From a virus (Duplodnaviria > Heunggongvirae > Uroviricota > Caudoviricetes), in IMG/VR virus record IMGVR_UViG_2563366829_000018, positions 1 through 36,816 of that record: 36,816 nt of DNA; one strand, given 5' to 3'. The notes under the pieces were generated by a model, which had not been told where the DNA came from, made no database searches, and was given only the letters and a program-made list of their open reading frames with translations. Shown here in pieces: positions 18,199-34,293 of this stretch; position 1 is the first letter of the stretch, and every line of letters starts with the position of its first letter. A program made the translations under genes and the position numbers.

Positions 18199-18203
18199 GC
18201 ATG

Positions 18204-18235
18204 TAAAAAGGCCCCAACACATGTGCGTGGGGCCT
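18204..18235 (-). terminator. Intrinsic terminator upstream of the lysis cassette (7-bp GGCCCCA stem, then TTTTT on the minus strand)
   Basis: Read directly. Confidence 0.45.
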
Positions 18236-18434
18236 GAGAGTATACATGGTTTCAGTCAACTGCATGGTGCCGTGTGCCTCCCGGTGAATTCAGTACCAGC
18301 ACCTGAATCCGCGATTATCCCATATACCTACTCGCTGATTGCCCCTCCGCACAGGGGGATTCACCATGCCAGTTTCTTTTGACAAACTCCCCGCAAAACA
18401 GACAACTGTCAACCGTCTGAATTGTGAGACATTT

Positions 18435-18459
18435 AAAAAAAGGCCCGCAAAAGCGAGCC
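18435..18459 (-). terminator. Intrinsic terminator just downstream of the tRNA cluster (GGCUCGC-UUUU-GCGGGCC followed by UUUUUUU)
   Basis: Read directly on the minus strand. Confidence 0.5.
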
Positions 18460-18473
18460 GGGAAAAATAAGTC

Positions 18474-18550
18474 TGGCGCGTTGTACTGGATTCGAACCAG
18501 TGACCGATTGCTTAGAAGGCAATTGCTCTGTCCGGTTGAGCTAACAACGC
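18474..18550 (-). tRNA. tRNA-Arg, anticodon UCU
   Basis: 77-nt cloverleaf folded by hand: GCGTTGT acceptor, anticodon loop CTTCTAA, TTCGAAT T-loop, encoded CCA. Confidence 0.85.
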
Positions 18551-18563
18551 AGGGTACAGATAA

Positions 18564-18640
18564 TGGACCACCATCGAGGACTCGAACCCCGCGCAACCAG
18601 CTTCGAAGGCTGGTGCTCTATCCTGATGAGCTAATGGCGG
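18564..18640 (-). tRNA. tRNA-Arg, anticodon UCG
   Basis: 77-nt cloverleaf folded by hand: anticodon loop CTTCGAA, TTCGAGT T-loop, encoded CCA. Confidence 0.8.
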
Positions 18641-18647
18641 TATGTGA

Positions 18648-18723
18648 TGGTGGCCCTTGCTGGATTTGAACCAGCGACCTGGCGATTATGAGTCGCTCGC
18701 TCTCACCACTGAGCTAAAGGGCC
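18648..18723 (-). tRNA. tRNA with CAU anticodon, ileX-like (Ile2 via lysidine, or Met)
   Basis: GGCCCTTTAGCTCAGTGGTGAGAGCGAGCGACTCATAATCGCC...CCA closely resembles E. coli ileX. Confidence 0.85.
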
Positions 18724-18751
18724 GAGCCAAAAAATAATAATCAGATGAAAA

Positions 18752-19465
18752 TCAATAATCAAGCCCTTGCCTGGATACATATCTGTCTGGCGGGAAGCCA
18801 TAATAGCGGTGAAATACAGAAATAAAGTAGGACCTGCTTGAATAACCGCATTTTTCTGCTATAGCCTGTCCATATCCATGCCGGGAACATAACATATTTA
18901 CAGCAACACGCATCCGCTCTTCCAGCAACAAGCGACTGAACATGCCCCCTTCATTTTTCAGTTTTGTCTTTAACAAACTCTCACTCATATGCAACTGTAG
19001 AGCAATCGCACCAAGCGTCCAGCTTGCTGATATATCTGTCTGAATTATCGCCCTGACTTTGGCACTTATGCTGGATAAACATCCACTTAAAAACAATGAC
19101 ATCCGTTCATCTGTTTCAAACAGAGACAGGCAGGCCATCATAAGAAACATATCCGTGGCCTCTCCGGAAAATCCCTGGCTGGTAATTAAAGCCGCAGCCA
19201 ACGCAGGATTGTTGGGTTCCAGCAACAGGTAAAGCGGAATGTCAGTCAGACGAGTCCTCGTCAGCTTATGCTGACTTTCCAGATATTGACTTACGACGGA
19301 TTCGCTTATATCGACAATTTTAACTTTGCCATAATGCATAAGGAAAAGCTCCCTGATGCATTTGGTGGCCAGAACAACTGAGCCTGGCTTAAGTGACAAC
19401 GTATCCTTTTCAAGAAAAATATTAATTGGGGAGCAAACCATGATAACTGAACAGACAACAGCCAT
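18752..19465 (-). CDS. AraC-family transcriptional regulator (prophage cargo, PatE-like)
   Basis: C-terminal AraC-type HTH (SESLLKTKLKNEGGMFSRLLLEERMRVAVNML ... GYSSRSYFISVFHRYYGFPP); AT-rich gene; start may be the internal Met at 19441. Confidence 0.75.
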   Translation of the reverse strand: MAVVCSVIMVCSPINIFLEKDTLSLKPGSVVLATKCIRELFLMHYGKVKIVDISESVVSQYLESQHKLTRTRLTDIPLYLLLEPNNPALAAALITSQGFSGEATDMFLMMACLSLFETDERMSLFLSGCLSSISAKVRAIIQTDISASWTLGAIALQLHMSESLLKTKLKNEGGMFSRLLLEERMRVAVNMLCSRHGYGQAIAEKCGYSSRSYFISVFHRYYGFPPDRYVSRQGLDY

Positions 19466-19587
19466 TATAATTTTACTTTCATTAGCAATTGGTTAGCTCA
19501 ATTATAGCCCCAAAAGGTAAATTATCATCAACACATAAGCAAAGGACTGACAGGTGTCGCCCCCCCACCAGCCGCCCATTCACCACA

Positions 19588-19613
19588 AATAAAAAGCCTT
19601 CAGGACTGAAGGC
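19588..19613 (-). terminator. Intrinsic terminator overlapping the 3' end of the 65-aa ORF
   Basis: Palindrome GCCTTCAGGACTGAAGGC followed by TTTTTATTT on the minus strand. Confidence 0.4.
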
Positions 19614-19797
19614 GTCTGTAACAACCGCACTGATAGTCTGCCAGACCCGCCATAACAAGCTGGGTCAGTATTAACTGGCAGCGTTCGCGTGAAAGGTAAG
19701 TATTCTGCGCAATCTCCCCGACTGTCGCCGGTTCGGTAACGCTTAATTCATCAAACACAACTCTGGCGGTTTCTGTCATATCCTGCTGTTTCAGCAT
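19600..19797 (-). CDS. Hypothetical small protein (65 aa), possible HTH
   Basis: ORF only; lies between two terminator-like hairpins. Confidence 0.35.
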   Translation of the reverse strand: MLKQQDMTETARVVFDELSVTEPATVGEIAQNTYLSRERCQLILTQLVMAGLADYQCGCYRRLQS

Positions 19798-19920
19798 GTC
19801 TTTTTACCCTTTCCGGTTAACGTGACATACCAATAACTCTTGTCTAAAAAGCCAGCAAGATAAAAAGCCAGTATTCACGACCACCAGCGTGTTTACTGTA
19901 CTGCACCAAGTTTACAGGTA

Positions 19921-19943
19921 CAAAAAACCCGCTCAGTGGCGGG
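19921..19943 (-). terminator. Intrinsic terminator downstream of the 205-aa cargo gene (AAACCCGC-CACUGA-GCGGGUUUUUUU)
   Basis: Read directly on the minus strand. Confidence 0.5.
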
Positions 19944-20075
19944 TTTAAGTTGTGTGGCGAAGTAACCACTCTTAACACACTAATAGCATTTTTGTTATAA
20001 CACAAGTAGCTCATTCAGTATTTTTAGAATCTTGACTTTCTTAAGCACGGCGAACTCTGAATACCAAACATAAAA

Positions 20076-20693
20076 TCAATTATCTTCCAGGCCGGATGCT
20101 ATCAACGAAAGCCTCTCAAAAAACGCTGTAGCAGCCTTGTCCAAAGTTGAATAAGTACTGTATTCTCCGTGTTCGGGACCAACCACTACCCATGGTCGTC
20201 TTTTTGGGATTCGGGACTTCTCAGAAATCACTGTTCCAGATATACCAATATCAATTGTTACACCTGTTATTATTTTCTCTTCATCTCTTTCCCTGAACTC
20301 AATTGCCATAAATGCCGTTTTTTTTCGTTTCCCGTTTTTAAAAAAATCAAATAAAGCAAAGCGATGCTCATTAAAATCAACACCCCATCGTCCTTCAGGA
20401 TAAAGGGCATGAAAGTTGTCATTTACGCTCTGCATCGTCTCATAAGCTTTAACTTCTAAATCTCCATAGTGCATAGATACCGCGCAGGAGTCACTGGGTA
20501 ACTGTATTTTCCCAAGATTGAAAACCTTTACTGCTCCAGAACTATGGCATCTTGCCCGCAATTTATCCCCATTTATACTAATCGGAGAAATATTCCTTAA
20601 TGTTCCGGGCTGGCTCCCTCCTAAGTAAACGACTGTTAAAGATTGCTTATTTTCAATTGCATCAACTAATACATGCTCTACATTTTTATCCAT
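20076..20693 (-). CDS. Hypothetical protein (205 aa), AT-rich cargo gene immediately downstream of Q
   Basis: Strong RBS GGGAGG 6 nt upstream of ATG (MDKNVEHV); no domain recognisable by eye. Confidence 0.6.
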   Translation of the reverse strand: MDKNVEHVLVDAIENKQSLTVVYLGGSQPGTLRNISPISINGDKLRARCHSSGAVKVFNLGKIQLPSDSCAVSMHYGDLEVKAYETMQSVNDNFHALYPEGRWGVDFNEHRFALFDFFKNGKRKKTAFMAIEFRERDEEKIITGVTIDIGISGTVISEKSRIPKRRPWVVVGPEHGEYSTYSTLDKAATAFFERLSLIASGLEDN

Positions 20694-20768
20694 AATAACC
20701 TCCCAATGAACAGGTATCATCAGGAGGTTATAATAAAATATGATTATTTACTTTGATTGAATTTATTA

Positions 20769-21140
20769 CTATATGTAACAATCAATTTCTAAAGATACCC
20801 CCAACATTGCCAGACAACCGTCAATAAACCCTTCAGCTTTCTGCAGTCTGATAACAACCTGATTAAGTGATATCCCCAGTTTTACCCCCAACACCCGTAA
20901 TGTAACCCCATACACATAATACATTTCCAGTAATTCGTATTGATACGGTTCCTTTTTCTTAAGAACTGTCATCGCAGAGCTAATGATCAGGCCATCGTCA
21001 TCGCTACATTGCGGGCGGGATTTTACTTTCGAAGGAATTAATCCCTTAAAACCTGCAGCAACAGATGACCATTCCACATCCTCGTGATTATTTGCCACCC
21101 ATGCCCCCCAACGTTCAAGAACCATTTGAATATCACGCAT
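20769..21140 (-). CDS. Q: Late-gene antiterminator Q (QuuD/phage-82 type)
   Basis: MRDIQMVLERWGAWVANNHEDVEWSSVAAGFKGL matches the QuuD-family N-terminus as I recall it; GGAG RBS; position upstream of the lysis module. Confidence 0.75.
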   Translation of the reverse strand: MRDIQMVLERWGAWVANNHEDVEWSSVAAGFKGLIPSKVKSRPQCSDDDGLIISSAMTVLKKKEPYQYELLEMYYVYGVTLRVLGVKLGISLNQVVIRLQKAEGFIDGCLAMLGVSLEIDCYI

Positions 21141-21157
21141 CAACTTTCTCCACAAAA

Positions 21158-22153
21158 TCAGGCCAGCACGCCTATTGCCAGCGCACGATCGATAAAACGA
21201 AATATCAGCTCCAGCTGGGAGCCATACTTCTCTTCAAATGCCACGGTATCCGCATGCAGCTCGTCGTGATGCTTTCTGCACAAAGGCAGCACGAAGAGGT
21301 CATGCGCTTTTGTACCCATTCCCCCCTGACCGTGGCCTATCAGGTGGTGGGGATCATCAGCAGGCTTTCCACAACATGCACACGGCTGCGTCTTAACCCA
21401 GCGCGTGTACTTTTCATTAACCCAGCGGCGACGTTTGGGGCGTAACATAAAAGACTCCGGCGACTCCGGATCCACTTTCAGCGCCAGCACCTTTTTCGCT
21501 TTATCCTGGATGATGCTGGTGGCAGGAACCGAAGGCACAAGGTCACTTTCCCGGGTGACAGACGGCACAACAGGCTTCGGTAATCTCAGTGCCTTACGGG
21601 CTGCACTTTCCGGTAAGGCATCCGCCAGGTCATTACGAATCAGCCACCAGCACAGTTCCGGCATTGTCACAACGTGACTGTCATCAAAACCGAGATCCCG
21701 ACGCACAACAGACAACACCCAGCGGGCACAGTTATCCGTTGCCATTGATTCCAGCCGTTCCGTGAACTGATCGCGCAGCTGGTTATCGCAGTGCCAGCAC
21801 AGACGGATTGCACCCGGAGCGTGTCGCATTGTGGTCATGTTCTCGCTGTGCCATCCGGAATGAGGCCACTGGCAGCCTTTTTCACGAAGTAACCAGCTTT
21901 CAAGACATTCCACGCCACCAGCACGACGGATCACTGCCTCATGGCGGAACACGGCCCGAACGGCAGGATCATCCGCCAGCGGTTGTGATGCCGCCGGAAC
22001 GGCACCACTGGCGAAAGATGAATAACGCTCCGGCTCAGGCTCCAGCAGGACACGCCCCTGCATAAACAGGGGCATCAGCTCTGAACCTGGCCTGAACAAT
22101 ACGATCCCCATACGCGGGGCAATTTCAGGGGTCAGTAGTGCTCTCACAGTCAC
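21158..22153 (-). CDS. DUF968-family protein (YdfU-like) with a C-terminal Cys/His cluster
   Basis: CACCGKPADDPHHLIGHGQGGMGTKAHDLFVLPLCRKHHDELH; sits immediately upstream of Q as ydfU does in Qin. Confidence 0.75.
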   Translation of the reverse strand: MTVRALLTPEIAPRMGIVLFRPGSELMPLFMQGRVLLEPEPERYSSFASGAVPAASQPLADDPAVRAVFRHEAVIRRAGGVECLESWLLREKGCQWPHSGWHSENMTTMRHAPGAIRLCWHCDNQLRDQFTERLESMATDNCARWVLSVVRRDLGFDDSHVVTMPELCWWLIRNDLADALPESAARKALRLPKPVVPSVTRESDLVPSVPATSIIQDKAKKVLALKVDPESPESFMLRPKRRRWVNEKYTRWVKTQPCACCGKPADDPHHLIGHGQGGMGTKAHDLFVLPLCRKHHDELHADTVAFEEKYGSQLELIFRFIDRALAIGVLA

Positions 22154-22154
22154 C

Positions 22155-22970
22155 TCAATGAACGGTATCGAGCAGCTTTAACAGCTCAGGAAATCGGGAT
22201 TCGAAGAAATGCGGCTGCGTCTCGCGCGGATTTGCAGGACTGGTGATGTTCTTGCCGAACATGCAGCCTTTCGCGGTCAGCGACCAGAATTTTTTGATGT
22301 TGTTAATCGCGGTACGGCTGTATCGTTCGCGTTGTTCAACGATCCCCAGCTTCGCCATCTGGTGATATGCCTGATTAGCCGTCAGGCGGATACCATACTG
22401 CTTCAGCAGTGCACTCAGCGACAGCGTAGGGCGGCTTGAACCATCTGGCGCATCAGCAGGTGCATCAATGGCATAGATCGGCATAAGTTCAGGAAGACCA
22501 GCTACCTTTGATAATTTCTGGTATGCACCAAGTTTCGAGGAGTTTGACAGATTTAGAGTCTTTGCTGCTGATTCAAGCAGAATGACCCCGGATTTAATTT
22601 TGTCGGATGTGGTTTCTTCTGGTGATGAATTATGAAGCGCATCAAAAGTACGTATCACTTTTAAGCTGAATGCCGGGCTGATCCACATTGCATATGCATA
22701 GACCAGCTCTTTACAGACATACGTCCCACCATTGCGCCCCTGAATGGTGATGACAGGAATACTACGGGAATCTCCCGTAGTTTCTTCTTCCAATAATTCC
22801 ACAAGAGCCTTCGTTTCAGGACGACGCATAAACTCGTGAACTTCCAGCGAACGGGAGGAGCGATTCTCACCAGCGGCAAGAAGAGCAGCTTTCTGAAGGT
22901 CGTTAAGACAGTAGTTAGATTCGAAGTACTGGCGCACAGAAACGCCATCAATTACAAGCAACTGATTCAT
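22155..22970 (-). CDS. KilA-N domain protein (antirepressor-like)
   Basis: N-terminal KilA-N-like segment; start MNQLLVIDG preceded by GGAG. Confidence 0.6.
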   Translation of the reverse strand: MNQLLVIDGVSVRQYFESNYCLNDLQKAALLAAGENRSSRSLEVHEFMRRPETKALVELLEEETTGDSRSIPVITIQGRNGGTYVCKELVYAYAMWISPAFSLKVIRTFDALHNSSPEETTSDKIKSGVILLESAAKTLNLSNSSKLGAYQKLSKVAGLPELMPIYAIDAPADAPDGSSRPTLSLSALLKQYGIRLTANQAYHQMAKLGIVEQRERYSRTAINNIKKFWSLTAKGCMFGKNITSPANPRETQPHFFESRFPELLKLLDTVH

Positions 22971-23132
22971 TGGTTTCTCCACAAATTTTTATCCACGAGC
23001 GGGACTGCACTCCCTTTTCGTTGATGCAGGATGAACTTACTGCGATTTTTAATAGTTATCAAGGATACACTGTTCATAAATACAGTATCTTTAACGAGGT
23101 AATACCCAAATTTAGGGTGTTGCTCAATTCCG

Positions 23133-23528
23133 TTACCGAGTTGCTAATTTGCAACTCGCTTTTTCGTACTTACTGATAGTGATCTCGACCTTCCCCTCCG
23201 GGATAACCGGTCCCCACTCCACCAGCATTCTTTTCACCTGACTGTCGTCTTCCCACACACCCGCGTGGGTCAGGGCGTCAAACAGCGCCTTGTTATAGTT
23301 GTCCAGATCGCGGATCCGGTTATCCGGAGGAAACAACACGATCTCCACTGAAGCAGGTGCCGACGTTGGTTTCGGCAGACGACGTAACTGCTCAACTATT
23401 GCTGCACACGCCGCGCTCTGGAATTTTCGCCCCGCCGCGCTTATCAGGCTCTTACCAGCAAACGCCCCTTTGTTGGGGTGTCGCCAGTACGTGTTCACGC
23501 TGGGCGGAAAAGGCAGTATTAGCTTCAT
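23133..23528 (-). CDS. rusA: Holliday junction resolvase RusA
   Basis: RDLDNYNKALFDALTHAGVWEDDSQV matches the RusA catalytic core (RRRDLDN...FDAL). Confidence 0.85.
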   Translation of the reverse strand: MKLILPFPPSVNTYWRHPNKGAFAGKSLISAAGRKFQSAACAAIVEQLRRLPKPTSAPASVEIVLFPPDNRIRDLDNYNKALFDALTHAGVWEDDSQVKRMLVEWGPVIPEGKVEITISKYEKASCKLATR

Positions 23529-23851
23529 ACTTTCAGGCCCCTCTCATGTAACCAGTGGGTTGCACGCAGCCTTGCGTTTTCCTCACCGGCAAGCAGTGCG
23601 CGGATAATCCCGACCGCCTCGCTGTCGTCGTCCTTCATCGCAGTATGAAGCGTTATCCCCCGGGCCACGCCACGCTTTATCGTGATGACGCCTTTTTTCT
23701 CCAGTGCGCGAAGATGCTCCACCGCTGCATTCACCGAACGGTATCCCAGCATGGTTGCCACCTCCTGATTGGTTGGCGGGAAGCCACGTTCTTTCTGATA
23801 AGAAATCAGCATATCCAGCACCTGCTGCTGGCATTGAGTTAACGTCGTCAT
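23525..23851 (-). CDS. LexA N-terminal DNA-binding-domain protein without a peptidase domain
   Basis: LTQCQQQVLDMLISYQKERGFPPTNQEVATMLGYRSVNAAVEHLRALEKKGVI parallels the LexA winged-HTH; only 108 aa. Confidence 0.65.
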   Translation of the reverse strand: MTTLTQCQQQVLDMLISYQKERGFPPTNQEVATMLGYRSVNAAVEHLRALEKKGVITIKRGVARGITLHTAMKDDDSEAVGIIRALLAGEENARLRATHWLHERGLKV

Positions 23852-24501
23852 GCCGCCATCTCCCTGACCAGTTTTTCCGCCTGCTGGCGAACCTGCGCCA
23901 GAAACGCCTCACCACATGCCTCAAGTTCATCGCGCCCTATGTAGCTGATTGCCGGTCCCTTCCAGGTCTTGTCGAAAACAGCAATAGCACCAGCGAAGAA
24001 AGCACCTGTTGGCACCTGCTTTTCGTCTTTCGGGATAAACCAGGCAGGCAGTTCAAAACCAATACGCCCGCGAATAAAAGCAATATGATCTGCATCTTCC
24101 GGCCACCACACTTCGCTGGTGGCAGCTTTGATCAGGAAAACATAGCGCCCGCCTTTATCACGCATGGCACTGGCATGTTTCATGATGTAACGCATGCCGG
24201 TGATGTATTGCCCCTCATGCTGACTGGCGCGGCTGTACGGGGGATTACCAAAGGCAGCACCTTTAAGCTCCGCAAGACGTTCAGACCAGTCATGCGCCAG
24301 CGCGTTGTCTTCCGCAGTGTAATACGCAGCACATTTGGCGTTATCACCGTCAGTGAACAGATCCAGAACAAACGGGCCAAACAGGGTGTTAATTCCCCAG
24401 AAAATGTTGTCCGGCGTGCGCCACTGATCGCCCACTTCCTTCAGTTCATGGGCTGGTTTGTTCCGCAGTTCCACCAGCGCCTGGCAATATTTATTACTCA
24501 T
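23848..24501 (-). CDS. Phage DNA N6-adenine methyltransferase (Dam-like), orphan
   Basis: NPPY catalytic motif (FGNPPYSRAS); no adjacent restriction gene; start set at MSNKYCQ. Confidence 0.8.
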   Translation of the reverse strand: MSNKYCQALVELRNKPAHELKEVGDQWRTPDNIFWGINTLFGPFVLDLFTDGDNAKCAAYYTAEDNALAHDWSERLAELKGAAFGNPPYSRASQHEGQYITGMRYIMKHASAMRDKGGRYVFLIKAATSEVWWPEDADHIAFIRGRIGFELPAWFIPKDEKQVPTGAFFAGAIAVFDKTWKGPAISYIGRDELEACGEAFLAQVRQQAEKLVREMAA

Positions 24502-24995
24502 TAAGCCCCCACGAAATTCCCTGACAGATACCACTCTTCACCCGATGCAGCGCGCTTGCTGCTTTTCCGTAAGCACCGCTCACGACGTGCCAGAAAATTG
24601 TTTCGTTCTGGCTGGGAGTGGCTTTCACGGAATGCCGCCATCCACACCGTTGCAGCACGACGGTATAAGCCCCTGGACTCCAGTTCTTCAGCCTGGCGGG
24701 TCAGGCACAAAATCACACGGGGATCGTTAGTGCCGACATAGAAATTGCGCACAGGTCTGGTTTCACGAACTGGTTGTGGTTCCGGATCCTGCGCTCTCTC
24801 AGTCAGGCGTGGGAAATGTCTGCGTGTATCTCCTTCACAACGGTGAGCCACACGCCCACTCTGACGTAACTTGCTTGCTGACTGCAGAACGCGCTGCCGT
24901 GAGTAACCAGCAAAAGCATCCGCAATGTCTCCGGAAGTACAGCCCGGATGGGCTTCAATGAATTTCTGAACTTCATTCAAAAGACTCATGATCAC
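24501..24995 (-). CDS. Hypothetical protein with a PerC-like C-terminal region
   Basis: LESRGLYRRAATVWMAAF resembles the PerC/Pch signature (GLWRRAA..W); ATGA coupling with the upstream gene. Confidence 0.45.
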   Translation of the reverse strand: MIMSLLNEVQKFIEAHPGCTSGDIADAFAGYSRQRVLQSASKLRQSGRVAHRCEGDTRRHFPRLTERAQDPEPQPVRETRPVRNFYVGTNDPRVILCLTRQAEELESRGLYRRAATVWMAAFRESHSQPERNNFLARRERCLRKSSKRAASGEEWYLSGNFVGA

Positions 24996-25810
24996 CCCCT
25001 GAATCCTTCCGGGATCTGGCTGTAGTCCACGTTGTCGTAACTGGCTTTGAAGTACGGGTCCTCGCGTCTGACTGCAGATACCGCAGGAACTTCCCAGGAT
25101 TCTTCGAAATGACGATCCGGGCCAAAGAACGTGACAGCCTGTTTCACAAATTGTGTGCCGCTGTTACCCATCGCAGATACCCAGCCCGCGTAGCGTTTCA
25201 CACCTTCCAGCATGGTTTCGGGGTTTACCCCCTCATTCAAACGGGCTTTCCAGGCTTTGAAGGCTGCAGATTTTGAATTGCCACCAGCACGTTTTGGATA
25301 GGCCAGCCATGCCTGCTCAAACTCCGGAGAGTATTCCGGTCGGTTTGAACGAACTCGCACAGACTCATCAGCAGATGCACCAACAGCTATTGGTTCATTG
25401 ACTGGTTCTTTGACTGGTTCAAAAGAGTGACTGGTTCTGGGTGAATCTCCTGCACTACCCCCTGGTGCAACTCCTGCACTACCTGGTGAATTTGCTGCAC
25501 CAGATAGTGAATTATTTGCACTACCCCCTAGTGAATCTCCTGCACCATCAAGATGAAGGAGATAGATATTACTTGAGTTACCTTTTTCACCTTTCCGGGT
25601 GACTTTTTTTACCAGCCCGGACTCACAAAGGGCCGCAATATGATTCATCACAGAACGTTTGCTAATCTCGCACTGGTCAGCAATATGCTGGTAGCTGGGC
25701 CAGCACTCACCCTGATCGCTGGCATTATCAGCCAGCTTAATCAGAACCAGTTTTCGCAATGGATTTCCCACTCGAATTTTCATCGCTTTAACCATCAACT
25801 CCATACTCAT
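24992..25810 (-). CDS. Replication initiator (O-like, N-terminal winged HTH) with a repetitive linker encoded by iterons
   Basis: N-terminal HTH (SYQHIADQCEISKRSVMNHIAALCESGLV); Gly/Ser/Ala-rich repeat region coinciding with DNA direct repeats. Confidence 0.6.
   Translation of the reverse strand: MSMELMVKAMKIRVGNPLRKLVLIKLADNASDQGECWPSYQHIADQCEISKRSVMNHIAALCESGLVKKVTRKGEKGNSSNIYLLHLDGAGDSLGGSANNSLSGAANSPGSAGVAPGGSAGDSPRTSHSFEPVKEPVNEPIAVGASADESVRVRSNRPEYSPEFEQAWLAYPKRAGGNSKSAAFKAWKARLNEGVNPETMLEGVKRYAGWVSAMGNSGTQFVKQAVTFFGPDRHFEESWEVPAVSAVRREDPYFKASYDNVDYSQIPEGFRG
25390..25550. repeat. Candidate replication origin iterons inside the O-like gene
   Basis: Three copies of TGACTGGTTC (25399-25438), two exact copies of GTGAATCTCCTGCAC (25441 and 25531), repeated TGCACTACC units. 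Confidence 0.55.
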
Positions 25811-26031
25811 GCAGCACCTCCGAGATGCTTCATGTTTTTTCCGGAGCGAAAGGCTATAAGCGGCATACTGACGCGGTAATTACGGCCCAGCGGTTCACAA
25901 ATCACCTTCTGACATTCACGGTCAACCAGGCTAACACGTAGAACATGCCCTGCAGGCGTGGTGTACCACTGACCCGGACGAGGACAACGGAAAGTATGAT
26001 TGGTAAACCGTTTGAAAATATTCCGGATCAT
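25807..26031 (-). CDS. Hypothetical small protein (74 aa)
   Basis: ORF translationally coupled to the O-like gene; no recognisable domain. Confidence 0.3.
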   Translation of the reverse strand: MIRNIFKRFTNHTFRCPRPGQWYTTPAGHVLRVSLVDRECQKVICEPLGRNYRVSMPLIAFRSGKNMKHLGGAA

Positions 26032-27188
26032 TTACGCCCCCTTACCTCTGAAGGGTTCAGCGACAAATTTATGAGACTGGCCAGTAGCGCCGCGTCGTTG
26101 ATGCGGTCATACAGACTTACAGCCAGCGGGGATTCGGCTTTTGCCAACATGGGATAAAGCTGCTGCAGCCAGACCTTGTGGATTACCGACAGGTGGGAGT
26201 AAAGCACGCTGGCGTTATCTGCGGCATCGCTCAGCGTGGATGGCTTTGAAAGCAGTTTTTCCATCTGGTTAAAGGCATTGATGTATGCCTCTTTGAACCG
26301 GGCAGCACGTTTACCCGTGAAACCCATAGCAAGAAACGCAAAACCGTCTCGTGTGATTTGATAGCAAAGGAGCTTGCGTGTACCACCGTTCGGTTGATTT
26401 ACCGAAATCGATGTCTCCGCAAAATTGCGGGCACAAAACTCAGGGGAACAATCCAGAGTGCGGATCTTTTTCAGCACATCGTCGTGACGCTTGGAGAAGA
26501 AGTTGGCAACAGCCAAAGAAGTGGTAACGGCCTGGCCGTTGTCAATGGTGATTTCAGGTTGAGTGAGGGCTGGGATCGTAGCCATGATGGCAGCCTCCGT
26601 TGACAGTGAAAAACTTCCACCACCGGAAACGCCAATTTCACTGGTGGTGAACTGGACGGGGTTGGCGTAACCGGCGTCAACGGAGACCGGCGCACCTTTC
26701 GGTGCCCCCGCCCAGCCCACCATAATCTGGATGTGAGCAAATGCGGACGATAAAAAAGACGCTGGCGCGTCATACATCGCCGTTGACAATTTCAGGACGC
26801 CAATCCCGGCACCCGCTTTATAAGGTGCCTGAACAGTGTAACGTCCCGGAATTGCAGAATCAATATGCTGGTGGTCCTTCACACTCAACAAAATCACGCC
26901 TGAATTTCCACAAAGGACTAAAGCACTCATGCGGGTAGTCTTTGCGAAGATAGATAACGCGCTGTGTTTCTGGCTCCCAACGAATAACATGGACATAAAG
27001 CCCTCTTCCGTCACGAAACCAGCGGTTAAGTTCCTGCACAACTCGCCCCCCACAGTCAGGTAAAGTTCTCTGTGGTTACTTACAGCCAGGTGATTTGGTA
27101 ATCTGCATTCATGCCGTAACAACAGGTGTTCAGCGACGCTGACCACCAGCTGTTGCGACAAACGGTTATTTGCCGTTAAACTATTCAT
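26028..27188 (-). CDS. Rha-family phage regulatory protein with a ~200-aa N-terminal extension
   Basis: Rha-like core (ITIDNGQAVTTSLAVANFFSKRHDDVLKKIRTL) at residues ~210-300; ATGA coupling with the CII-like gene supports the long form; an alternative start at 26585 has a GGAGG RBS. Confidence 0.55.
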   Translation of the reverse strand: MNSLTANNRLSQQLVVSVAEHLLLRHECRLPNHLAVSNHRELYLTVGGELCRNLTAGFVTEEGFMSMLFVGSQKHSALSIFAKTTRMSALVLCGNSGVILLSVKDHQHIDSAIPGRYTVQAPYKAGAGIGVLKLSTAMYDAPASFLSSAFAHIQIMVGWAGAPKGAPVSVDAGYANPVQFTTSEIGVSGGGSFSLSTEAAIMATIPALTQPEITIDNGQAVTTSLAVANFFSKRHDDVLKKIRTLDCSPEFCARNFAETSISVNQPNGGTRKLLCYQITRDGFAFLAMGFTGKRAARFKEAYINAFNQMEKLLSKPSTLSDAADNASVLYSHLSVIHKVWLQQLYPMLAKAESPLAVSLYDRINDAALLASLINLSLNPSEVRGRK

Positions 27189-27742
27189 GCGTTAGTTTCT
27201 CCACAACCAGAAGCAATCGACGCCACGACGCCCGGAGCTGCACACTCGCGGGCGTTACTCTTTTCTGGAGCGCAGAAGATTTTGTAGACCAGTGCTGCAT
27301 GCTCCTGGAGCTTCGAAATTGAAAGATACAGTTCGTCGTTAATTGCTGTCTTCTCATGCGGTTCCACTACACCGTCTTCGATTGCTGAACGAATCTGTCT
27401 GGAATAACTGCCGATCTGTTCAATGACTTCCAGCAGGCGCTGGTTTATATCGGCGTTCTCTACTGCCTCAATTTCAGGAAGCGATACGAACACCCCACCA
27501 GCAGACTGTGCGACAGCATCCGCAATGTAGTGAGTGCCAGCCGCACGCTGTAAAACCATTGCCCATCCCAGCGGGAAAATCTGATCGCCATCTGCACGAA
27601 GGCGGTTGAATAATGCGTTCTCTGTTACATCCAGCCACTCAGCAGCTTCAGCGTAACCCCCCGGCAACGCCGCGATAGTTTTTCTGACAGCTTTCACGTA
27701 CCACTCAGGCTGTTTTTCCACTTTCCAGTGATGATTACCCAC
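27185..27742 (-). CDS. Putative CII-like regulatory protein
   Basis: Position immediately downstream of cro; assignment is by position and weak resemblance only. Confidence 0.4.
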   Translation of the reverse strand: MGNHHWKVEKQPEWYVKAVRKTIAALPGGYAEAAEWLDVTENALFNRLRADGDQIFPLGWAMVLQRAAGTHYIADAVAQSAGGVFVSLPEIEAVENADINQRLLEVIEQIGSYSRQIRSAIEDGVVEPHEKTAINDELYLSISKLQEHAALVYKIFCAPEKSNARECAAPGVVASIASGCGETNA

Positions 27743-27995
27743 GGCTTACCTCCTGTTCCTGTGGTTTAAACCCATTCTGGTTTTGGCTAGATTGAAAACG
27801 TGCCGGATAAAGAATCTGCATTTCGCTGATTTCACCCTTAAAAAAATTGGCCAGACGTTCTGCAAGATCGATAGATGGAATTTGTTCCAGTCTTTCAATA
27901 CGACTCAGCGTCGCTGGATTGACCTGAACGCCCGCAGCAACATGCTGCAAAGTAAATCCGTGCGCCTTACGCACATTCCGTAATGGTGATTGCAT
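27735..27995 (-). CDS. cro: Cro-like repressor (XRE-family HTH)
   Basis: HTH (HGFTLQHVAAGVQVNPATLSRIE); divergent from cI; GGAGG RBS. Confidence 0.8.
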   Translation of the reverse strand: MQSPLRNVRKAHGFTLQHVAAGVQVNPATLSRIERLEQIPSIDLAERLANFFKGEISEMQILYPARFQSSQNQNGFKPQEQEVSRG

Positions 27996-28092
27996 ATAAC
28001 CTCCACATATTGCGTGATGAGCATATTATTTCACGCAAATATTTTGCGCAAGTTGATTTGCTTAACGCGCAATAAAGAAATGTAATAAACGC
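27996..28092. promoter_or_regulatory. Right operator / divergent promoter region between cro and cI
   Basis: Repeated palindromic half-sites (TTGCGTGA...TCACGCAA, CGCAAATATTTTGCG, TTGCGCAA) in the 97-bp cI-cro intergenic region. Confidence 0.6.
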
Positions 28093-28785
28093 ATGAACAT
28101 AGGAAACCGAGTCAGACAACTTCGCCAGGCGAAGAACATGAAAATCGCCGATCTCGCTGAAGCAATAGGAGTGGATGCGGCGAATATCTCACGCCTGGAA
28201 ACAGGTAAGCAGAAACAATTCACTGAACAAGCCCTGAGTAATATTGCCAGGAGCTTAGGTGTTGATATCGCTGATCTCTTTACCTCAGACGTCAAAAGTA
28301 ATACTGTATGTAAAAACAGTATTGGTGAGGATGTTGCGCAGGTGAAGGATGTATTCCGTATTGAAATGCTGGATGTCAGTGCCAGTGCGGGAAATGGCCT
28401 TATCCAGGGCGGTGATGTCATTGATGTGATTCATGCCATTGAATACAGAACTGATAATGCTGTATCGATGTTTGGCGGACGGCCAGCCAATCACATTAAA
28501 GTTATCAACGTTCGTGGGGACAGTATGTGTCCAACCATTGAGCCAGGAGATCTCATCTTCGTTGATATCAGTATCAATCAGTTTGATGGGGATGGTATAT
28601 ATGTATTTGGTTTTGATGATAAAATTTACGTCAAACGACTGCAAATGATACCTGATAAACTGCTGGTAATTTCTGATAATCAGATTTACCGCGAATGGGG
28701 AATTACCAGCGAAAACGAACATCGGTTTATGGTCTTTGGAAAGGTCTTAATCAGTCAGTCACAAACCCTTAAGCGACACAATTAA
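28093..28785 (+). CDS. cI: CI-type prophage repressor (XRE HTH plus S24 LexA-like autopeptidase domain)
   Basis: N-terminal HTH; C-terminal S24-like domain (VRGDSMCPTIEPGDLIFVD ... KIYVKRL); no Shine-Dalgarno sequence upstream of the ATG. Confidence 0.9.
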   Translation: MNIGNRVRQLRQAKNMKIADLAEAIGVDAANISRLETGKQKQFTEQALSNIARSLGVDIADLFTSDVKSNTVCKNSIGEDVAQVKDVFRIEMLDVSASAGNGLIQGGDVIDVIHAIEYRTDNAVSMFGGRPANHIKVINVRGDSMCPTIEPGDLIFVDISINQFDGDGIYVFGFDDKIYVKRLQMIPDKLLVISDNQIYREWGITSENEHRFMVFGKVLISQSQTLKRHN

Positions 28786-28805
28786 CCCCTACCTCAACAT
28801 CAATT

Positions 28806-28830
28806 AGCCACCAGAAGGTGGCTTTTCATT
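28806..28830 (+). terminator. Intrinsic terminator downstream of cI (AGCCACC-AGAA-GGTGGCT followed by TTTTCATT)
   Basis: Read directly. Confidence 0.5.
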
Positions 28831-28839
28831 ACCCACCAA

Positions 28840-28900
28840 ATTGCATATCTCGCAATAAAAACACTTGCATAATGCGCAACTTCATTTTATCTTTCTTTCC
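28840..28900 (+). promoter_or_regulatory. Candidate left operator / pL region
   Basis: Operator-like repeats TTGCATATCTCGCAA and TTGCATAATGCGCAA resembling the half-sites of the right operator. Confidence 0.35.
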
Positions 28901-29487
28901 AGACATACAAACAAGGTACTAACAAAATTTGGTTGTAACACGGCGTATGGCACATGCGTCGTTAGCGGTCTGGTGACGTTAAAGGGGACAATCCACTCCT
29001 TGCTCGGGCAAACAAACCAGGTAGCCGGAATGTGCAAGTCAATGATGATGCTGATAAGACGCCTAACCAGCGTGGCGATCCGGTTTGACGCCTGGGAAGA
29101 GACCAGGGTGCAACGATGAGGGCATTTATGGAACCGCGACAAAGTGTGGTGCCGTAACTGGCTAAGTGCTCTCAGCGTTGTGGTAATCCGCGAAATGGCG
29201 CGGCGGTAAGTATGGCGGGGTTACTCTTTCCCCGTTGAGGACACCGGATTGTCAGGTTGACCATACGCCTGAGTGACAACCCCACCACAACAGCCACTGC
29301 TTTGGCGGTACCAGTTTGTACCCTTGCTTCCGGCTGGTACCGCTCTTTTTACAAAACAGAGAAGAGCATCACCGGACGACGGGCTCATAACCCAATCCAT
29401 CCGGGCGGCTGTCACCGCAGGTGTTCTTCTCTGTTTTGTGGAGAAACCAACCGACCTTGCAGGGTCGGTATGATGAGGAGCAGCAAA

Positions 29488-29850
29488 ATGGCTAGCGTAC
29501 GCAGTACTGATGTGCAGGTATTTATCGTAGAACTGGACGGCGGCGTATTTGAAACCAAACTCGGCGCAGTTCTCAGTGAAGTCGCTTCCGGTGTGATGAA
29601 CACGAAAAACAAAGGTAAAGTCTCGGTCAATCTGGACATCGAACCGTTTGATGAGAACCGTGTGAAAATCAAACACAAACTCTCATATGTTCGCCCGACT
29701 AACCGCGGGAAAATCTCCGAAGAAGACACCACCGAAACGCCGATGTATGTCAATCGAGGTGGTCGCCTGACTATTCTGCAGGAAGACCAGGGACAATTAC
29801 TGACTCTTGCCGGTGAACCTGACGGAAAACTCCGCGCAGCAGGTCGTTAA
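29488..29850 (+). CDS. YfdP-like hypothetical protein (120 aa)
   Basis: GAGGAG RBS; size and position match the yfdP-yfdQ-yfdR-yfdS module of prophage CPS-53. Confidence 0.55.
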   Translation: MASVRSTDVQVFIVELDGGVFETKLGAVLSEVASGVMNTKNKGKVSVNLDIEPFDENRVKIKHKLSYVRPTNRGKISEEDTTETPMYVNRGGRLTILQEDQGQLLTLAGEPDGKLRAAGR

Positions 29851-29915
29851 TATCGTTCGTAATAAACTGATTATTTATCTCATCACTGAATATCTTTATA
29901 TAGTGAGGACTTATT

Positions 29916-30740
29916 ATGTCTCAGAACTTAGACGCAACCGCAATTAATCAAATCCATGCCCTTATTTCTGCTCAGGGTGTTAATGAAATTATCAGTAAGA
30001 TTGGTGCCGATGCTGTGGCATTGCCTGAGAATTTCCGCATTCATGATCTGGAAAAATTTAATTTAAATCGCTTCCGTTTCCGTGGTGCACTTTCCACTGC
30101 CAGCATCGATGATTTTACCCGTTATTCTAAAGATCTTGCAGATGAAGGCACCCGCTGCTTTATCGATGCCGATAATATGCGTGCCGTCAGTGTGCTTAAC
30201 CTGGGTACTATTGATGAGCCAGGTCACGCAGATAACACTGCCACTCTCAAACTGAAAAAGACAGCACCGTTCTCTGCTCTGTTGTCTGTTAACGGCGAGC
30301 GTAACTCCCAGAAGTCACTGGCAGAATGGATCGAAGACTGGGCCGACTACCTTGTGGGCTTTGATGCTAATGGTGACGCTATTCAGGCAACAAAAGCGGC
30401 TGCGGCAGTCCGTAAAATCACGATTGAAGCAAACCAGACCGCTGATTTTGAAGATAATTACTTCAGCGGCAAACGCTCCCTGATGGAGTCTGTCGAAGCG
30501 AAGACCAAAGACATTATGCCAGTGGCATTTGAATTTAAATGCGTTCCGTTTGAAGGTCTGAAAGAACGTCCGTTTAAATTACGCCTCAGCATTATCACTG
30601 GCGATCGTCCTGTACTGGTTCTGCGCATTATTCAGCTGGAAGCGGTGCAGGAAGAAATGGCTAACGAATTTCGTGATCTGCTTGTTGAGAAATTCAAAGA
30701 CAGCAAAGTAGAAACCTTTATTGGTACTTTCACCGCCTGA
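29916..30740 (+). CDS. YfdQ-like DUF2303 protein (274 aa)
   Basis: Length and gene order match yfdQ. Confidence 0.65.
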
Positions 30741-30867
30741 TTTCATTACTGCAAATGCCCCTGCGGGGGCATTTATGGAAACGTAATTAACTCAATAATC
30801 ACCGGATGGTGAGGGCTTCCTTTTACCAGAATTCAGCGCGGTGCAGTGCATATACGTGGAGAACAAA

Positions 30868-31404
30868 ATGTCATTTATTAAAACTTTTTCCGGGAAGCAT
30901 TTTTATTATGACAAGATAAATAAAGACGACATCGATATTAACGATATCGCGGTTTCCCTTTCAAATATCTGTCGCTTTGCCGGTCATCTTTCGCACTTCT
31001 ACAGCGTCGCCCAACATGCGGTTCTTTGCAGCCAGCTGGTGCCGCAGGAATTTGCTTTTGAAGCGTTAATGCATGATGCAACAGAAGCGTATTGCCAGGA
31101 CATTCCCGCACCACTGAAACGCCTTCTTCCTGACTATAAACGGATGGAAGAAAAAATAGACGCCGTAATCCGTGAGAAATACGGGTTACCCCCAGTTATG
31201 AGTACACCCGTGAAATATGCCGATCTCATCATGCTGGCAACCGAACGCCGCGATCTCGGGCTTGATGATGGCTCTTTCTGGCCTGTACTGGAAGGCATCC
31301 CGGCAACAGAGATGTTCAACGTGATTCCACTGGCACCGGGTCATGCCTACGGGATGTTTATGGAACGTTTTAACGATTTATCGGAGTTACGCAAATGCGC
31401 ATGA
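30868..31404 (+). CDS. HD-domain phosphohydrolase (YfdR-like 5'-deoxynucleotidase, 178 aa)
   Basis: HD motif context (SVAQHAVLCSQL ... ALMHDATEAYCQDIPAPLK). Confidence 0.7.
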   Translation: MSFIKTFSGKHFYYDKINKDDIDINDIAVSLSNICRFAGHLSHFYSVAQHAVLCSQLVPQEFAFEALMHDATEAYCQDIPAPLKRLLPDYKRMEEKIDAVIREKYGLPPVMSTPVKYADLIMLATERRDLGLDDGSFWPVLEGIPATEMFNVIPLAPGHAYGMFMERFNDLSELRKCA

Positions 31405-31757
31405 ATGTTTTCGAAATGGAAGGGTTTCTTCGCGGGAAATGTGTACCGCGAGATCTGAAAGTGAATGAAACAAATGCTGAGTACCTGTTACGTAAATTCG
31501 ACGCGCTTGAAGCTAAATGTGCGGCACTGGAAAACAAAATAATACCAGTGTCAGCTGAACTGCCACCAGCAAATGAAAGTGTTCTGTTATTTGATGCTAA
31601 CGGAGAAGGCTGGCTAATTGGCTGGCGTTCTCTCTGGTACACCTGGGGACAAAAAGAAACCGGAGAATGGCTGTGGACATTTCAGGTCGGGGACCTTGAA
31701 AACGTCAATATCACTCACTGGGCAGTAATGCCGAAAGCACCGAAGAATAAAAAATGA
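31395..31757 (+). CDS. DUF551-like protein (YfdS-like, 120 aa)
   Basis: ELPPANESVLLFDANGEGWLIGW motif; size and order match yfdS. Confidence 0.6.
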   Translation: MRMNVFEMEGFLRGKCVPRDLKVNETNAEYLLRKFDALEAKCAALENKIIPVSAELPPANESVLLFDANGEGWLIGWRSLWYTWGQKETGEWLWTFQVGDLENVNITHWAVMPKAPKNKK

Positions 31758-31957
31758 GCGTGATAAAAACTCATACAGGAATTGTTATCACCCGAGACGG
31801 TCCGCAGGTAAAAAAACTGCACCAGACAAAGCGGATGTGGGTCGTCGGAAAAAACGAGTTTTACCACAAAGAAACCGGACGCCGCCACTTTGCAGAAAAT
31901 ACTCGCCGCCGACTGCTGATCGATACCATCAAGCCTATCGAGGTGAAGCATGTTTAA
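31754..31957 (+). CDS. Hypothetical small protein (67 aa)
   Basis: ORF with overlapping stop/start in the operon. Confidence 0.35.
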   Translation: MSVIKTHTGIVITRDGPQVKKLHQTKRMWVVGKNEFYHKETGRRHFAENTRRRLLIDTIKPIEVKHV

Positions 31958-32189
31958 ACAGAACGAAAAATCTATCGCTCAAATTGCTGAGTATATCCCG
32001 CGTGCGTGCCGGGATATGCAGTTGCAGGAAGCCAAAGCACGCCTGGAGAAAAAAATTGCGCTCTATATCGATGACGGCTGTGATGCCGCCGTTCTTAACG
32101 CGGCGTTCGCGCCAGCTCTTAACAGTCATACGCGAAAGTCTTTTTTTTCGTGCATCGCAGCGCAGATCCGTAAAGGAGGCAACCAGTGA
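31950..32189 (+). CDS. Hypothetical small protein (79 aa)
   Basis: ORF with overlapping stop/start in the operon. Confidence 0.35.
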   Translation: MFKQNEKSIAQIAEYIPRACRDMQLQEAKARLEKKIALYIDDGCDAAVLNAAFAPALNSHTRKSFFSCIAAQIRKGGNQ

Positions 32190-32785
32190 GCAACATTAAC
32201 TATCAGGTACTGCGTGAAAAGGCAGAGAAAGCAACTAAAGGAAGCTACATCGTAGGGCATACATCTGTTAACCAACACGGCAATTTAACAGGAGTTTTTG
32301 TTTGTCAAAAATGGAAAGGAGAACCCGGTGGCGTAATTGCAGAATGTCACGTTAACTGCCTGGTTGAAACAGATGCTCAGGCTTATGCAAACGCTGAATT
32401 CATAGCAGAGGCTAACCCGGCTACCGTGCTGGCACTGCTGGATGAACAGGAAAGAAACCAGCAATACATCAAACGCCGCGACCAGGAGAACGAGGATATT
32501 GCGCTAACGGTAGGGAAGCTGCGCGTTGAGCTTGAGGAGACAAAATCAAAACTCAACGAGCAGCGCGAGTATTATGAGGGAGTTATCTCTGATGGGTGCA
32601 AGCGTATTGCTGAACTGGAAGCGCGGGAAGTTCAATTACCGACTCGCTACGACCTTCGATATGGACACCCCATAAATGCAGATGAGCGACAAGTCATGAT
32701 ACCTAAAGAAAATGGCAGTTGGCTTTACCTGATTGACCTAGAACACGCATTACGCGTCGCTGACATTCGCATCAAAGGAGAGTGA
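32186..32785 (+). CDS. Ead/Ea22-like protein
   Basis: N-terminus MSNINYQVLREKAEKATKG and central coiled-coil typical of Ea22-like early-left proteins. Confidence 0.6.
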   Translation: MSNINYQVLREKAEKATKGSYIVGHTSVNQHGNLTGVFVCQKWKGEPGGVIAECHVNCLVETDAQAYANAEFIAEANPATVLALLDEQERNQQYIKRRDQENEDIALTVGKLRVELEETKSKLNEQREYYEGVISDGCKRIAELEAREVQLPTRYDLRYGHPINADERQVMIPKENGSWLYLIDLEHALRVADIRIKGE

Positions 32786-32786
32786 T

Positions 32787-33302
32787 ATGGCGTTAACACA
32801 CCACGAACTCTGTCAGATTGCGTACAAGTTCCTTAAGCGCAACGGGTTCAAGGTTTGCTTTCATGACCGCTTTGTTGCTGTAACCAGTACCGGAGAACAG
32901 CCAGATGCTATGGGATTCAGAAATTCAGCATCATGCCTGATAGAGGCGAAGTGTTCTCGTGCTGACTTGTTGGCAGATAGAAAAAAGCGTTTCCGTAAAA
33001 ATCCCTCACTTGGCATGGGCGACTGGCGATTCTTTATTAGTGAGCCGGAAATTATTTCAGTTGAGGATTTACCTCCCGGCTGGGGATTACTTCACGTTGT
33101 TAACGGAAGAGTACGGAAAGTACATGGATGGCCCAGGGGTAATTGCTGTTGGGGTAATCCTGACGATAAGCCATTTACCGGGAATAAGCAGGTTGAATGC
33201 GATTACATGTTATCTGCATTAAGGCGCATGGAGTTGAGAGGGCACCTTAATGAAATATATGACGGTGTAATTGTTAATAAGAAAGAAGGAAACGCGGCAT
33301 GA
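32787..33302 (+). CDS. Putative PD-(D/E)xK-type nuclease (171 aa)
   Basis: Candidate catalytic triad in EQPDAMGF ... CLIEAKCS. Confidence 0.45.
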   Translation: MALTHHELCQIAYKFLKRNGFKVCFHDRFVAVTSTGEQPDAMGFRNSASCLIEAKCSRADLLADRKKRFRKNPSLGMGDWRFFISEPEIISVEDLPPGWGLLHVVNGRVRKVHGWPRGNCCWGNPDDKPFTGNKQVECDYMLSALRRMELRGHLNEIYDGVIVNKKEGNAA

Positions 33303-33817
33303 TCACTATTACCAAAGAGCGACTGCTGACAATCAAGCAGTGGCGCGAAACATACGGACCGGGTAGCAACGTTGTACTGCCAGCAGAAGAAGCGGAAGAA
33401 CTGGCACGAATTGCTCTGGCATCGCTGGAAGCAGAGCCGATAGGTTTCCGTTGCAGGCGCAATGATAACCTTGGTGATTGGAGTTACGTATATCATCGAG
33501 AGCCAGATGATTTTGAGCGCAAACATTTAGTGATAGAGGGCATTTACGCCGCCCCTCCAGCGCCGGTAGTGCCGGAAGAAATGTATTGGCAGGATGCGCC
33601 AGTTGAAGGCAGCAGCAAAGCGGCTGCATACGCTACAGGCTGGAACGATTGCCGCGAAGCCATGCTTCAGTCCGGAAACTTTCGGGAAAATAAAGATTCG
33701 TCAACCAATAATTTTCGGAAAATCCCGGAAGCGTCAACCAGCTCTCCGGTAACTCCGGATGGTTGGATAAGCTGTAGTGAGCGAATGCCGGACGACAGGC
33801 AGGAGGTGAATCAATGA
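33299..33817 (+). CDS. Hypothetical protein (172 aa) with a DUF551-like C-terminal motif
   Basis: C-terminal DGWISCSERMPDD resembles the DUF551 core. Confidence 0.45.
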   Translation: MITITKERLLTIKQWRETYGPGSNVVLPAEEAEELARIALASLEAEPIGFRCRRNDNLGDWSYVYHREPDDFERKHLVIEGIYAAPPAPVVPEEMYWQDAPVEGSSKAAAYATGWNDCREAMLQSGNFRENKDSSTNNFRKIPEASTSSPVTPDGWISCSERMPDDRQEVNQ

Positions 33818-33897
33818 GCTGGCCTGATGCAATCGTAACTCTGGGGGTGGTATTCGCAGCAGCGTTTGTTGTGTTCTCGATTTGTCGATGGGGATAA
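33814..33897 (+). CDS. Candidate small hydrophobic peptide (27 aa, single transmembrane helix)
   Basis: AGGAGG 7 nt upstream; ATGA overlap with the preceding stop; MSWPDAIVTLGVVFAAAFVVFSICRWG. Confidence 0.3.
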   Translation: MSWPDAIVTLGVVFAAAFVVFSICRWG

Positions 33898-33901
33898 CCA
33901 C

Positions 33902-34144: not shown

Positions 34145-34146
34145 AG

Positions 34147-34293
34147 AATGAATAAAGCATTTGAACGATGGGTCCACCAGCGTTACTGCAATCGCTATGA
34201 CCTGACGCGAGATGTTGACGGCTTCTACTGTCGTGAAGTTGTGAAGCGAATGTTTGAAGTGTGGTGCCACTGCCGTGGGCTGAGTGTTGTGTG
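34147..34293 (+). CDS. Hypothetical Cys-rich small protein (48 aa)
   Basis: GGAAG RBS; tightly packed between neighbouring ORFs. Confidence 0.3.

Follow-up and report, generated by a model that had tools for sequence, protein, structure and literature searches.

Is the AraC-type regulator gene in the late region of this lambdoid prophage a new regulator or a known one, and does the small open reading frame (ORF) that precedes it travel with it? The questions arise from a 36,816-nucleotide stretch of a Caudoviricetes virus record (IMG/VR IMGVR_UViG_2563366829_000018), analysed at its full length and called the window here; coordinates refer to the window unless another record is named. An earlier reading, which we call the original prediction, had placed an AraC-type helix-turn-helix (HTH) regulator and a 65-amino-acid (65-aa) ORF between the gene of the antiterminator Q and a group of tRNA genes, and had suggested regulators of the PatE or Psr type as its relatives. 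Both genes do lie on the minus strand between Q (20769-21155) and the tRNAs (18474-18723), the regulator gene at 18752-19465 and the small gene, hereafter orf65, at 19600-19797. The explanation that best accounts for the locus as a whole, and that we consider very probably correct, is that the regulator gene is an allele of the E. coli O157:H7 gene psrB (prophage-encoded secretion regulator B), lying in an AT-rich prophage cassette and acting on the acid-resistance circuit of the host.

To place the 237-aa product of the regulator gene in a family, we compared it with Pfam, NCBIfam and individual regulators. It passed both Pfam AraC models, HTH_AraC (PF00165; 50.3 bits, E-value 2.4e-13, in two stretches, cut-off 26.6) and HTH_18 (PF12833; 39.8 bits over residues 155-230, cut-off 33.6). 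It thus has at its C-terminus the DNA-binding domain, about 100 aa long and with two HTH motifs, that marks the AraC/XylS family, and its HTH region aligns with members of that family as the original prediction had proposed. The top NCBIfam model was YdeO, with residues 1-229 on profile positions 1-230 (E-value 4e-31), and the matches ranked below it (GadX, HilD and others) covered the HTH half only. No NCBIfam equivalog cut-off was reached, that of YdeO being missed with 108.5 bits against 348 and that of GadX with 87 bits against 500. By BLASTP the protein aligns at full length, from residue 1, with GadW (35% identity), YdeO (31%) and AppY (29%), whereas the 41% identity with GadX is restricted to the HTH half. 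By its scores under the cut-offs the protein is a relative of YdeO and GadX, not an orthologue; the alignments put it in a GadW/YdeO/AppY-like subgroup whose N-terminal domain is homologous over its full length. GadW, YdeO, GadX and AppY of K-12 are, like PsrB, AraC/XylS regulators of the gadE circuit; unlike them, the window gene is AT-rich phage cargo.

The identity of the gene can be specified further. The window protein shares 234 of its 237 residues (98.7%) with WP_000301797.1 of the O157:H7 strains EDL933 and Xuzhou21, whose gene lies in EDL933 at CP008957 1,905,274-1,905,987, in the CP-933O prophage region together with nleG7 and a PerC-family gene. To the product of psrA in prophage Sp4 of strain Sakai (ECs_1087, lengthened so that the starts agree) the window protein is 90.7% identical, the 22 substitutions being mostly in the N-terminal domain. 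The two O157 copies, from O-island 57 (OI-57) of EDL933 and from Sakai Sp4, are 91% identical to each other, in agreement with the 90% published for PsrA and PsrB (z2104, OI-57) (PMC10877973, PMC8565820). Moreover, published primers for the polymerase chain reaction on Z2104, which yield a 158-bp product (PMC4763077), fit the window without a mismatch at 19186-19205 (minus strand) and 19048-19067 (plus strand), again delimiting 158 bp. They also fit the EDL933 copy (158 bp), and the Sp4 copy has one mismatch. The protein identities and the exact primer matches together identify the window regulator as an intact psrB allele (Z2104, EDL933 O-island 57), and its place in the late region of a lambdoid prophage, near phage tRNAs, is that of a Psr gene. 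The Psr half of the original prediction therefore stands, while the relation to PatE is a distant one: the presumed PatE, ECs_0287 of Sakai Sp1, which we take to be PatE as the AraC-like gene of Sp1/CP-933H, is 37% identical over the full length. PatE (Z0321, CP-933H) is also a prophage-borne AraC-like activator of acid-resistance genes with the same domain plan, but its presumed gene stands at the end of the degraded prophage Sp1 and the window gene between Q and tRNAs; with this different prophage position and only 37% identity, orthology to PatE was rejected.

Two points of annotation affect these comparisons. First, ECs_1087 is annotated in Sakai as a 195-aa protein. The 237-aa form aligns with GadW, YdeO and AppY from its first residue onwards, which favours the longer start, and the 195-aa annotation is probably too short. 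Second, psrA is ecs1087 of Sp4 according to Tree's laboratory (PMC13502914), and reviews put it, as z1789, on OI-50. In the re-sequenced EDL933 genome we found no AraC gene between the antiterminator and the TerB-like gene of CP-933N/OI-50 (CP008957 1,625,000-1,674,000), a region that carries nleL, espN and espK; the assignment to z1789 and OI-50 may come from the first EDL933 assembly. We accordingly took Sakai ecs1087 (Sp4) as psrA.

The surroundings of the gene can be set beside those of the two O157 loci. The EDL933 PsrB locus (Z2104, OI-57/CP-933O) is like the window in the 237-aa length of the regulator, in orf65 upstream and in an ileZ-type tRNA downstream. It differs in having a DUF1133-type Q with nothing between Q and orf65, where the window has a Q of the Q21/Q933W type followed by a gene for a WYL-domain protein, and in having two tRNAs instead of three. 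The early region of the window also departs from the O157 PsrB prophage and resembles prophages of the extraintestinal isolates S88 and FDAARGOS_144. The psrA locus of Sp4 (ecs1087, published as z1789) has the same gene order as the window, namely Q, one cargo gene, orf65, psr and ileZ-argN-argO, but its cargo gene is of the CAAX-protease family and its orf65 is frameshifted, whereas that of the window is intact.

We then delimited the cargo. The psr gene, at 43.8%, has a lower G+C content than the window (51.2%) or the 65-aa ORF (50.5%), so that the AT-rich position claimed for the regulator is borne out. Homology to sibling phages with a methyltransferase gene extends along the backbone from about 19994/19946 to 19564/19534 and then breaks off; homology to locus L017, which has the tRNA array, resumes at 18727, at the first tRNA. 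This break and resumption delimit a psr cassette of about 835 bp on the minus strand (18728-19563, boundaries approximate) with a G+C fraction of 0.41-0.44. In the siblings, an N6/N4 DNA methyltransferase gene follows orf65 directly, in place of psr. Judged by these comparisons, psr is an exchangeable AT-rich cargo cassette, or moron. The module of orf65, psr and tRNAs is found behind three types of Q, namely PF06530 (the window and Sp4), DUF1133 (O157 CP-933O) and a 221-aa Q (strain STEC719), and the whole arrangement of Q, WYL gene, orf65, psr and tRNAs occurs in only 27 of 5426 complete E. coli genomes.

What the cassette would do can be read from published work on Psr. PsrA and PsrB raise the expression of gadE and yhiF and thereby repress type III secretion of the LEE (locus of enterocyte effacement); PsrB binds the gadE promoter and, between -132 and -45, the hdeA promoter; and PsrB helps the cells to survive pH 2.5-3.5 and to pass the mouse stomach (reviewed in PMC10877973, PMC8565820, PMC10057817). 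With 234 of 237 residues identical and an intact ORF, PsrB activity is expected of the window allele by analogy. Its product would bind the host promoters of gadE and hdeA, and this binding would raise glutamate-dependent acid resistance; in LEE-positive hosts, PsrB would also indirectly lower type III secretion.

The anatomy of the locus suggests how psrB may be expressed. A sigma-70-like promoter candidate, ATGATA-16-TATAAT (19501-19528, minus strand; 10 of 12 positions matching), lies between the terminator of orf65 and the psr ATG; it was the joint-best site in a 3-kb scan. The window, psrA and psrB all have it unchanged, and the Stx2k phage allele differs from them in one place. In the lysogen, psrB would be transcribed from this promoter (19528-19501). 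Terminator scanning and folding gave no strong terminator between psr and the tRNAs, the next one being at 18459-18442 (minus strand; -14 kcal/mol, z = -3.9), past the tRNA array; the psrB transcript therefore probably runs into the tRNAs and would end there. This terminator had no place in the original prediction, and neither did a second hairpin, at 19950-19925 on the minus strand.

The latter hairpin (CCCGCC-ACTGA-GCGGG; 19925-19950; -12 kcal/mol on its own), which is followed by a U-run and is a candidate for the late terminator tR', is part of a conserved arrangement. A GC-rich hairpin with a U-run stands about 125 nt before the orf65 ATG in all five aligned loci of E. coli and Salmonella, and the leader of about 125 nt between it and orf65 (19798-19924, minus strand) is nearly invariant in the five. 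Our terminator scan missed the hairpin, probably because an A-U extension of the stem consumes part of the T-run. About 35 nt directly upstream (GTTAAGAGTGGTTACTTCGCCACA...) are common only to the three loci with a PF06530-type Q (the window, Sp4 and L010; the Q protein of the window shares 59% identity with that of Sp4 and 43% with that of L010) and differ in the two loci with a DUF1133-type Q. The pattern at 20010-19925 is as expected of the late promoter pR' with its Q-loading site and of tR', as described for Shiga toxin (Stx) phages (PMC7547250). We thus place a candidate pR' and Q-loading region at 19951-20010 (minus strand, boundaries approximate), that is, a late promoter likely about 0.75 kb downstream of Q and past the WYL gene. 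By analogy with lambda 6S RNA and StxS, the likely pR'-tR' cassette would give a short RNA, made constitutively and about 50-60 nt long. As the psr cassette lies downstream of this likely pR'-tR' (about 20010-19925), Q-modified polymerase would, after induction, read through orf65, psrB and the tRNAs, like stx in Stx phages.

The comparison with stx has two sides. Like psr, stx is found in the interval from Q/pR'-tR' to the lysis genes, beside ileZ-argN-argO tRNAs, and STEC719 has a psr allele and stx2k in one such interval. Unlike stx, psr encodes a regulator and not a toxin, stands upstream of the tRNAs and has a promoter-like site of its own; and whereas stx is the classic Q-dependent late cargo, dependence of psr on Q is proposed by analogy.

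Several observations weigh against this account of psrB and its expression. The window allele differs from EDL933 PsrB by A103V, H196Y and I202V, and two of these three substitutions are at or adjoin the second HTH. Promoter-like sites are not enriched as a class, 7 having been found against 5.1 +/- 2.1 in shuffled sequences, and the region upstream of psr is 96% conserved overall, which makes the conservation of the hexamers weak evidence for a promoter. The position of pR' is inferred from comparative sequence only. Finally, no complete genome in the collection covers at least 80% of 11000-35900 of the window.

The strongest of the alternatives, which we still consider improbable, is that psr is silent in its host, for example through H-NS silencing of AT-rich DNA, or inert, and intact because it was acquired recently. 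The cassette is indeed AT-rich. In addition, expression of psrA in Sakai depends on counter-silencing inputs (PMC13502914), and secretion changed little when psrB was deleted in published work (PMC10877973, PMC8565820). On the other hand, induced PsrB enhances acid survival (PMC10877973). The family also shows the mark of purifying selection, with a dN/dS ratio of 0.21-0.43 that is lower in the HTH half (0.13-0.32) than in the N-terminal half (0.30-0.57), and a psr homologue is kept in 830 of the 5426 genomes by BLASTN, over at least 80% of its length in 797.

The best psr place had at least 99% identity in 595 of the records, 90-95% in 130 and 60-80% in 104, and many of the listed records, those of O157:H7 included, have two places. 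Nucleotide-identical alleles also occur in RefSeq genomes. The STEC719 allele (locus L018), 92% identical, shares one late interval with the tRNAs and stx2k and lies immediately upstream of them, and phage phiSTEC1575-Stx2k holds the same allele type; some Stx2k phages thus encode both a Psr regulator and the toxin. A paralogue with 59% identity is found in strain 2013C-3181, downstream of the tRNAs. As for the window itself, 18334-34278, which includes the early region, has 98.8% identity with a prophage that adjoins mlrA in the urine isolate FDAARGOS_144; over 18334-26815, the prophage of the extraintestinal isolate S88 is 97% identical.

Less probable again is that the regulator serves the phage, by acting on late or lysis genes or on lysogeny, and that its effects on host acid resistance are incidental. 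Such a role would fit a gene inside the presumed Q-dependent late transcription unit, and other lambdoid phages do have AraC-like genes, 36-39% identical. However, the siblings in which a methyltransferase gene follows orf65 instead indicate that psr is dispensable and exchangeable, and its closest non-phage relatives are host acid-resistance regulators. Direct binding to the host gadE and hdeA promoters, with phenotypes in the host, has also been published (PMC10877973, PMC8565820, PMC10057817). We therefore retain the reading of psrB as cargo that acts on the host.

The second question concerned orf65. Its product matches PHROG 331 over residues 1-64 (E-value 6e-37) and has 300 homologue clusters, from Escherichia, Shigella, Salmonella, Klebsiella, Citrobacter and Buttiauxella; over-long gene calls apart, almost all measure 63-65 aa. 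Salmonella and many E. coli prophages, with no AraC gene there, have orf65 in the same position, behind Q and a variable insert and ahead of a methyltransferase gene and the holin gene. Its dN/dS is 0.07-0.19 and its G+C fraction, 0.505, is like that of the backbone. An AlphaFold model (pLDDT 76.8) has a three-helix HTH core; all Foldseek matches of this model had E-values above 0.1, the best being winged-helix domains (PcaR, PefI, Z-alpha, IscR and MarR). The model and these matches lead us to call the protein winged-helix-like. Against Pfam TrmB (PF01978) it scored 17.8 bits, below the gathering score of 25.6, and this sub-threshold score leaves the NCBI name 'TrmB family' undemonstrated.

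As the original prediction had stated, orf65 ends in a terminator hairpin. The intrinsic terminator overlaps its stop (19596-19613, minus strand; -11.2 kcal/mol, z = -3.3): GCCTTCA-GTCC-TGAAGGC is followed by TTTTTATTTG, and the last codons and the TGA are inside the hairpin. In the RNA, GCCUUCA-GUCC-UGAAGGC followed by UUUUUAUUUG, the stop codon is in the 3' arm. The stem is kept in four alleles and the loop is changed in STEC719.

The distribution of orf65 bears directly on the proposal that it is carried together with the regulator, which fails. Among the points that speak for a pairing, orf65 and psr lie side by side on one strand in all psrA and psrB loci examined, the modelled fold of orf65 is of a DNA-binding type, and the K-12 relative ydeO is likewise preceded by a 65-aa gene, safA. 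The analogy with SafA and YdeO was rejected, as similarity between SafA and orf65 is undetectable; SafA is a membrane protein. Against a pairing, orf65 is far more widespread than Psr and keeps the same place after Q where a methyltransferase gene comes next and there is no AraC gene. In L017, a methyltransferase gene, tRNAs and other genes stand between orf65 and the Psr-like gene. The two are also parted by the terminator and the break in backbone homology, and their G+C fractions differ (0.505 and 0.438). The orf65 homologue of Sakai Sp4, ECs_1086 (28344-28583 of locus L003), has a 1-nt deletion at codon 49, while the adjoining psrA is reported to be functional in reviews of work on EDL933 (PMC10877973, PMC13502914), so that Psr seems able to do without orf65. 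The annotated 79-aa product of ECs_1086 is the frameshifted form, which reads through the terminator. That orf65 and the AraC gene form one two-gene module, in which the small winged-helix protein is a co-regulator or anti-activator of Psr carried as joint cargo, is the least probable of the alternatives and is refuted already on the distribution of the homologues. On the same comparisons, orf65 is a conserved backbone gene of lambdoid prophages, neither cargo nor a partner of the regulator, and is to be annotated as such.

Upstream of the conserved hairpin, the interval holds a gene that had gone unnoticed in the original prediction. Q itself matches PF06530 (E-value 1.5e-47), the Q21/Q933W family (10.1101/651190). 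Between it and the candidate pR', at 20076-20693 on the minus strand (a longer ORF extends to 20720), lies a cargo gene for a 205-aa protein. This protein matches PHROG 8498 (E-value 3e-126), and its Pfam WYL score is below the cut-off (16.3 against 21.8). However, the N-terminal domain of its AlphaFold2 model (pLDDT 74.5) fits the WYL domains of BrxR, CapW and DriD on superposition, with a root-mean-square deviation of 1.1-1.4 A over about 65 residues, at a probability of 1.00, so that the model indicates a WYL fold. Neither Pfam nor the model revealed an HTH in the protein, the WYL domain starting at about residue 17, and a match for the C-terminal beta-rich domain was not found in the PDB. 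A regulator of the BrxR/CapW/DriD type was rejected, as the protein lacks the N-terminal winged HTH before the WYL domain. Among 1.8 billion representatives, 490 clusters belong to the family, and the nine homologues found by word search all lack a functional name.

The slot after Q is occupied differently elsewhere. Sakai Sp4 has its CAAX-protease-family gene there, other E. coli prophages have an NA37 'nucleoid-associated anti-phage' gene pair on the opposite strand, and in L010-L015 the genes from Q to the hairpin are on the opposite strand. PADLOC returned nothing meaningful for any of the three proteins examined. A tentative reading, to which we give somewhat less than even chances, is that the region past Q departs from the textbook map of lambda: the late promoter and terminator would lie about 0.75 kb past Q, the gap would be a hotspot for defence-type cargo, and orf65, psrB and the tRNAs, with stx2k in Stx2k phages, would belong to one Q-dependent transcript. 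Under it, orf65 would be a near-universal first late gene for a winged-HTH protein, and the stand-alone WYL protein without an HTH could sense single-stranded DNA or act as a decoy.

Downstream of psr, ARAGORN and Rfam identified the three tRNA genes on the minus strand (18474-18723) as one with anticodon CAT, of the ileZ type, and two for arginine, with anticodons TCG and TCT; the same array in Sakai Sp4 is annotated ileZ1-argN1-argO1. Between the array and the holin gene, at 18199-18398 on the minus strand, there is a strong match to the small RNA family STnc100 (Rfam, 128.9 bits against a gathering score of 47), a stretch that is repeated several times in L017. Rfam found nothing within 18752-19797; besides the tRNAs and STnc100 downstream, it gave a sub-threshold match to STnc130. 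In the early region, the 164-aa product of a gene at 24501-24995 (minus strand) has a PerC domain at its C-terminus (PF06069, 36.1 bits). PerC/Pch-type regulators activate the LEE in enteropathogenic and enterohaemorrhagic E. coli (EHEC). The window prophage thus has both a PerC-like and a Psr regulator. In published work, Psr regulators have been associated, within the same prophage, with type III secretion effector loci and with regulators of the Pch/PerC type (PMC10877973). At the end of the window, 36429-36816 shares 96% identity with the Sakai Sp4 IS629 region, and an insertion sequence abuts the integrase end of the prophage.

The regulator is thus one that is already known and characterised, and since the role of a 98.7% identical protein has been described since 2011-2015, the window brings no new regulator biology. 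It does place near-identical psrB alleles well outside O157, in the prophages of S88 and of the urine isolate. If the reading of a late promoter past the cargo slot is true, PsrB would come from its own promoter in the lysogen and, upon induction, would also be made in a burst. Our results therefore suggest that psrB is a textbook-style prophage moron, one that would plug into the gadE acid-resistance cascade of the host, a cascade which in EHEC also touches type III secretion.

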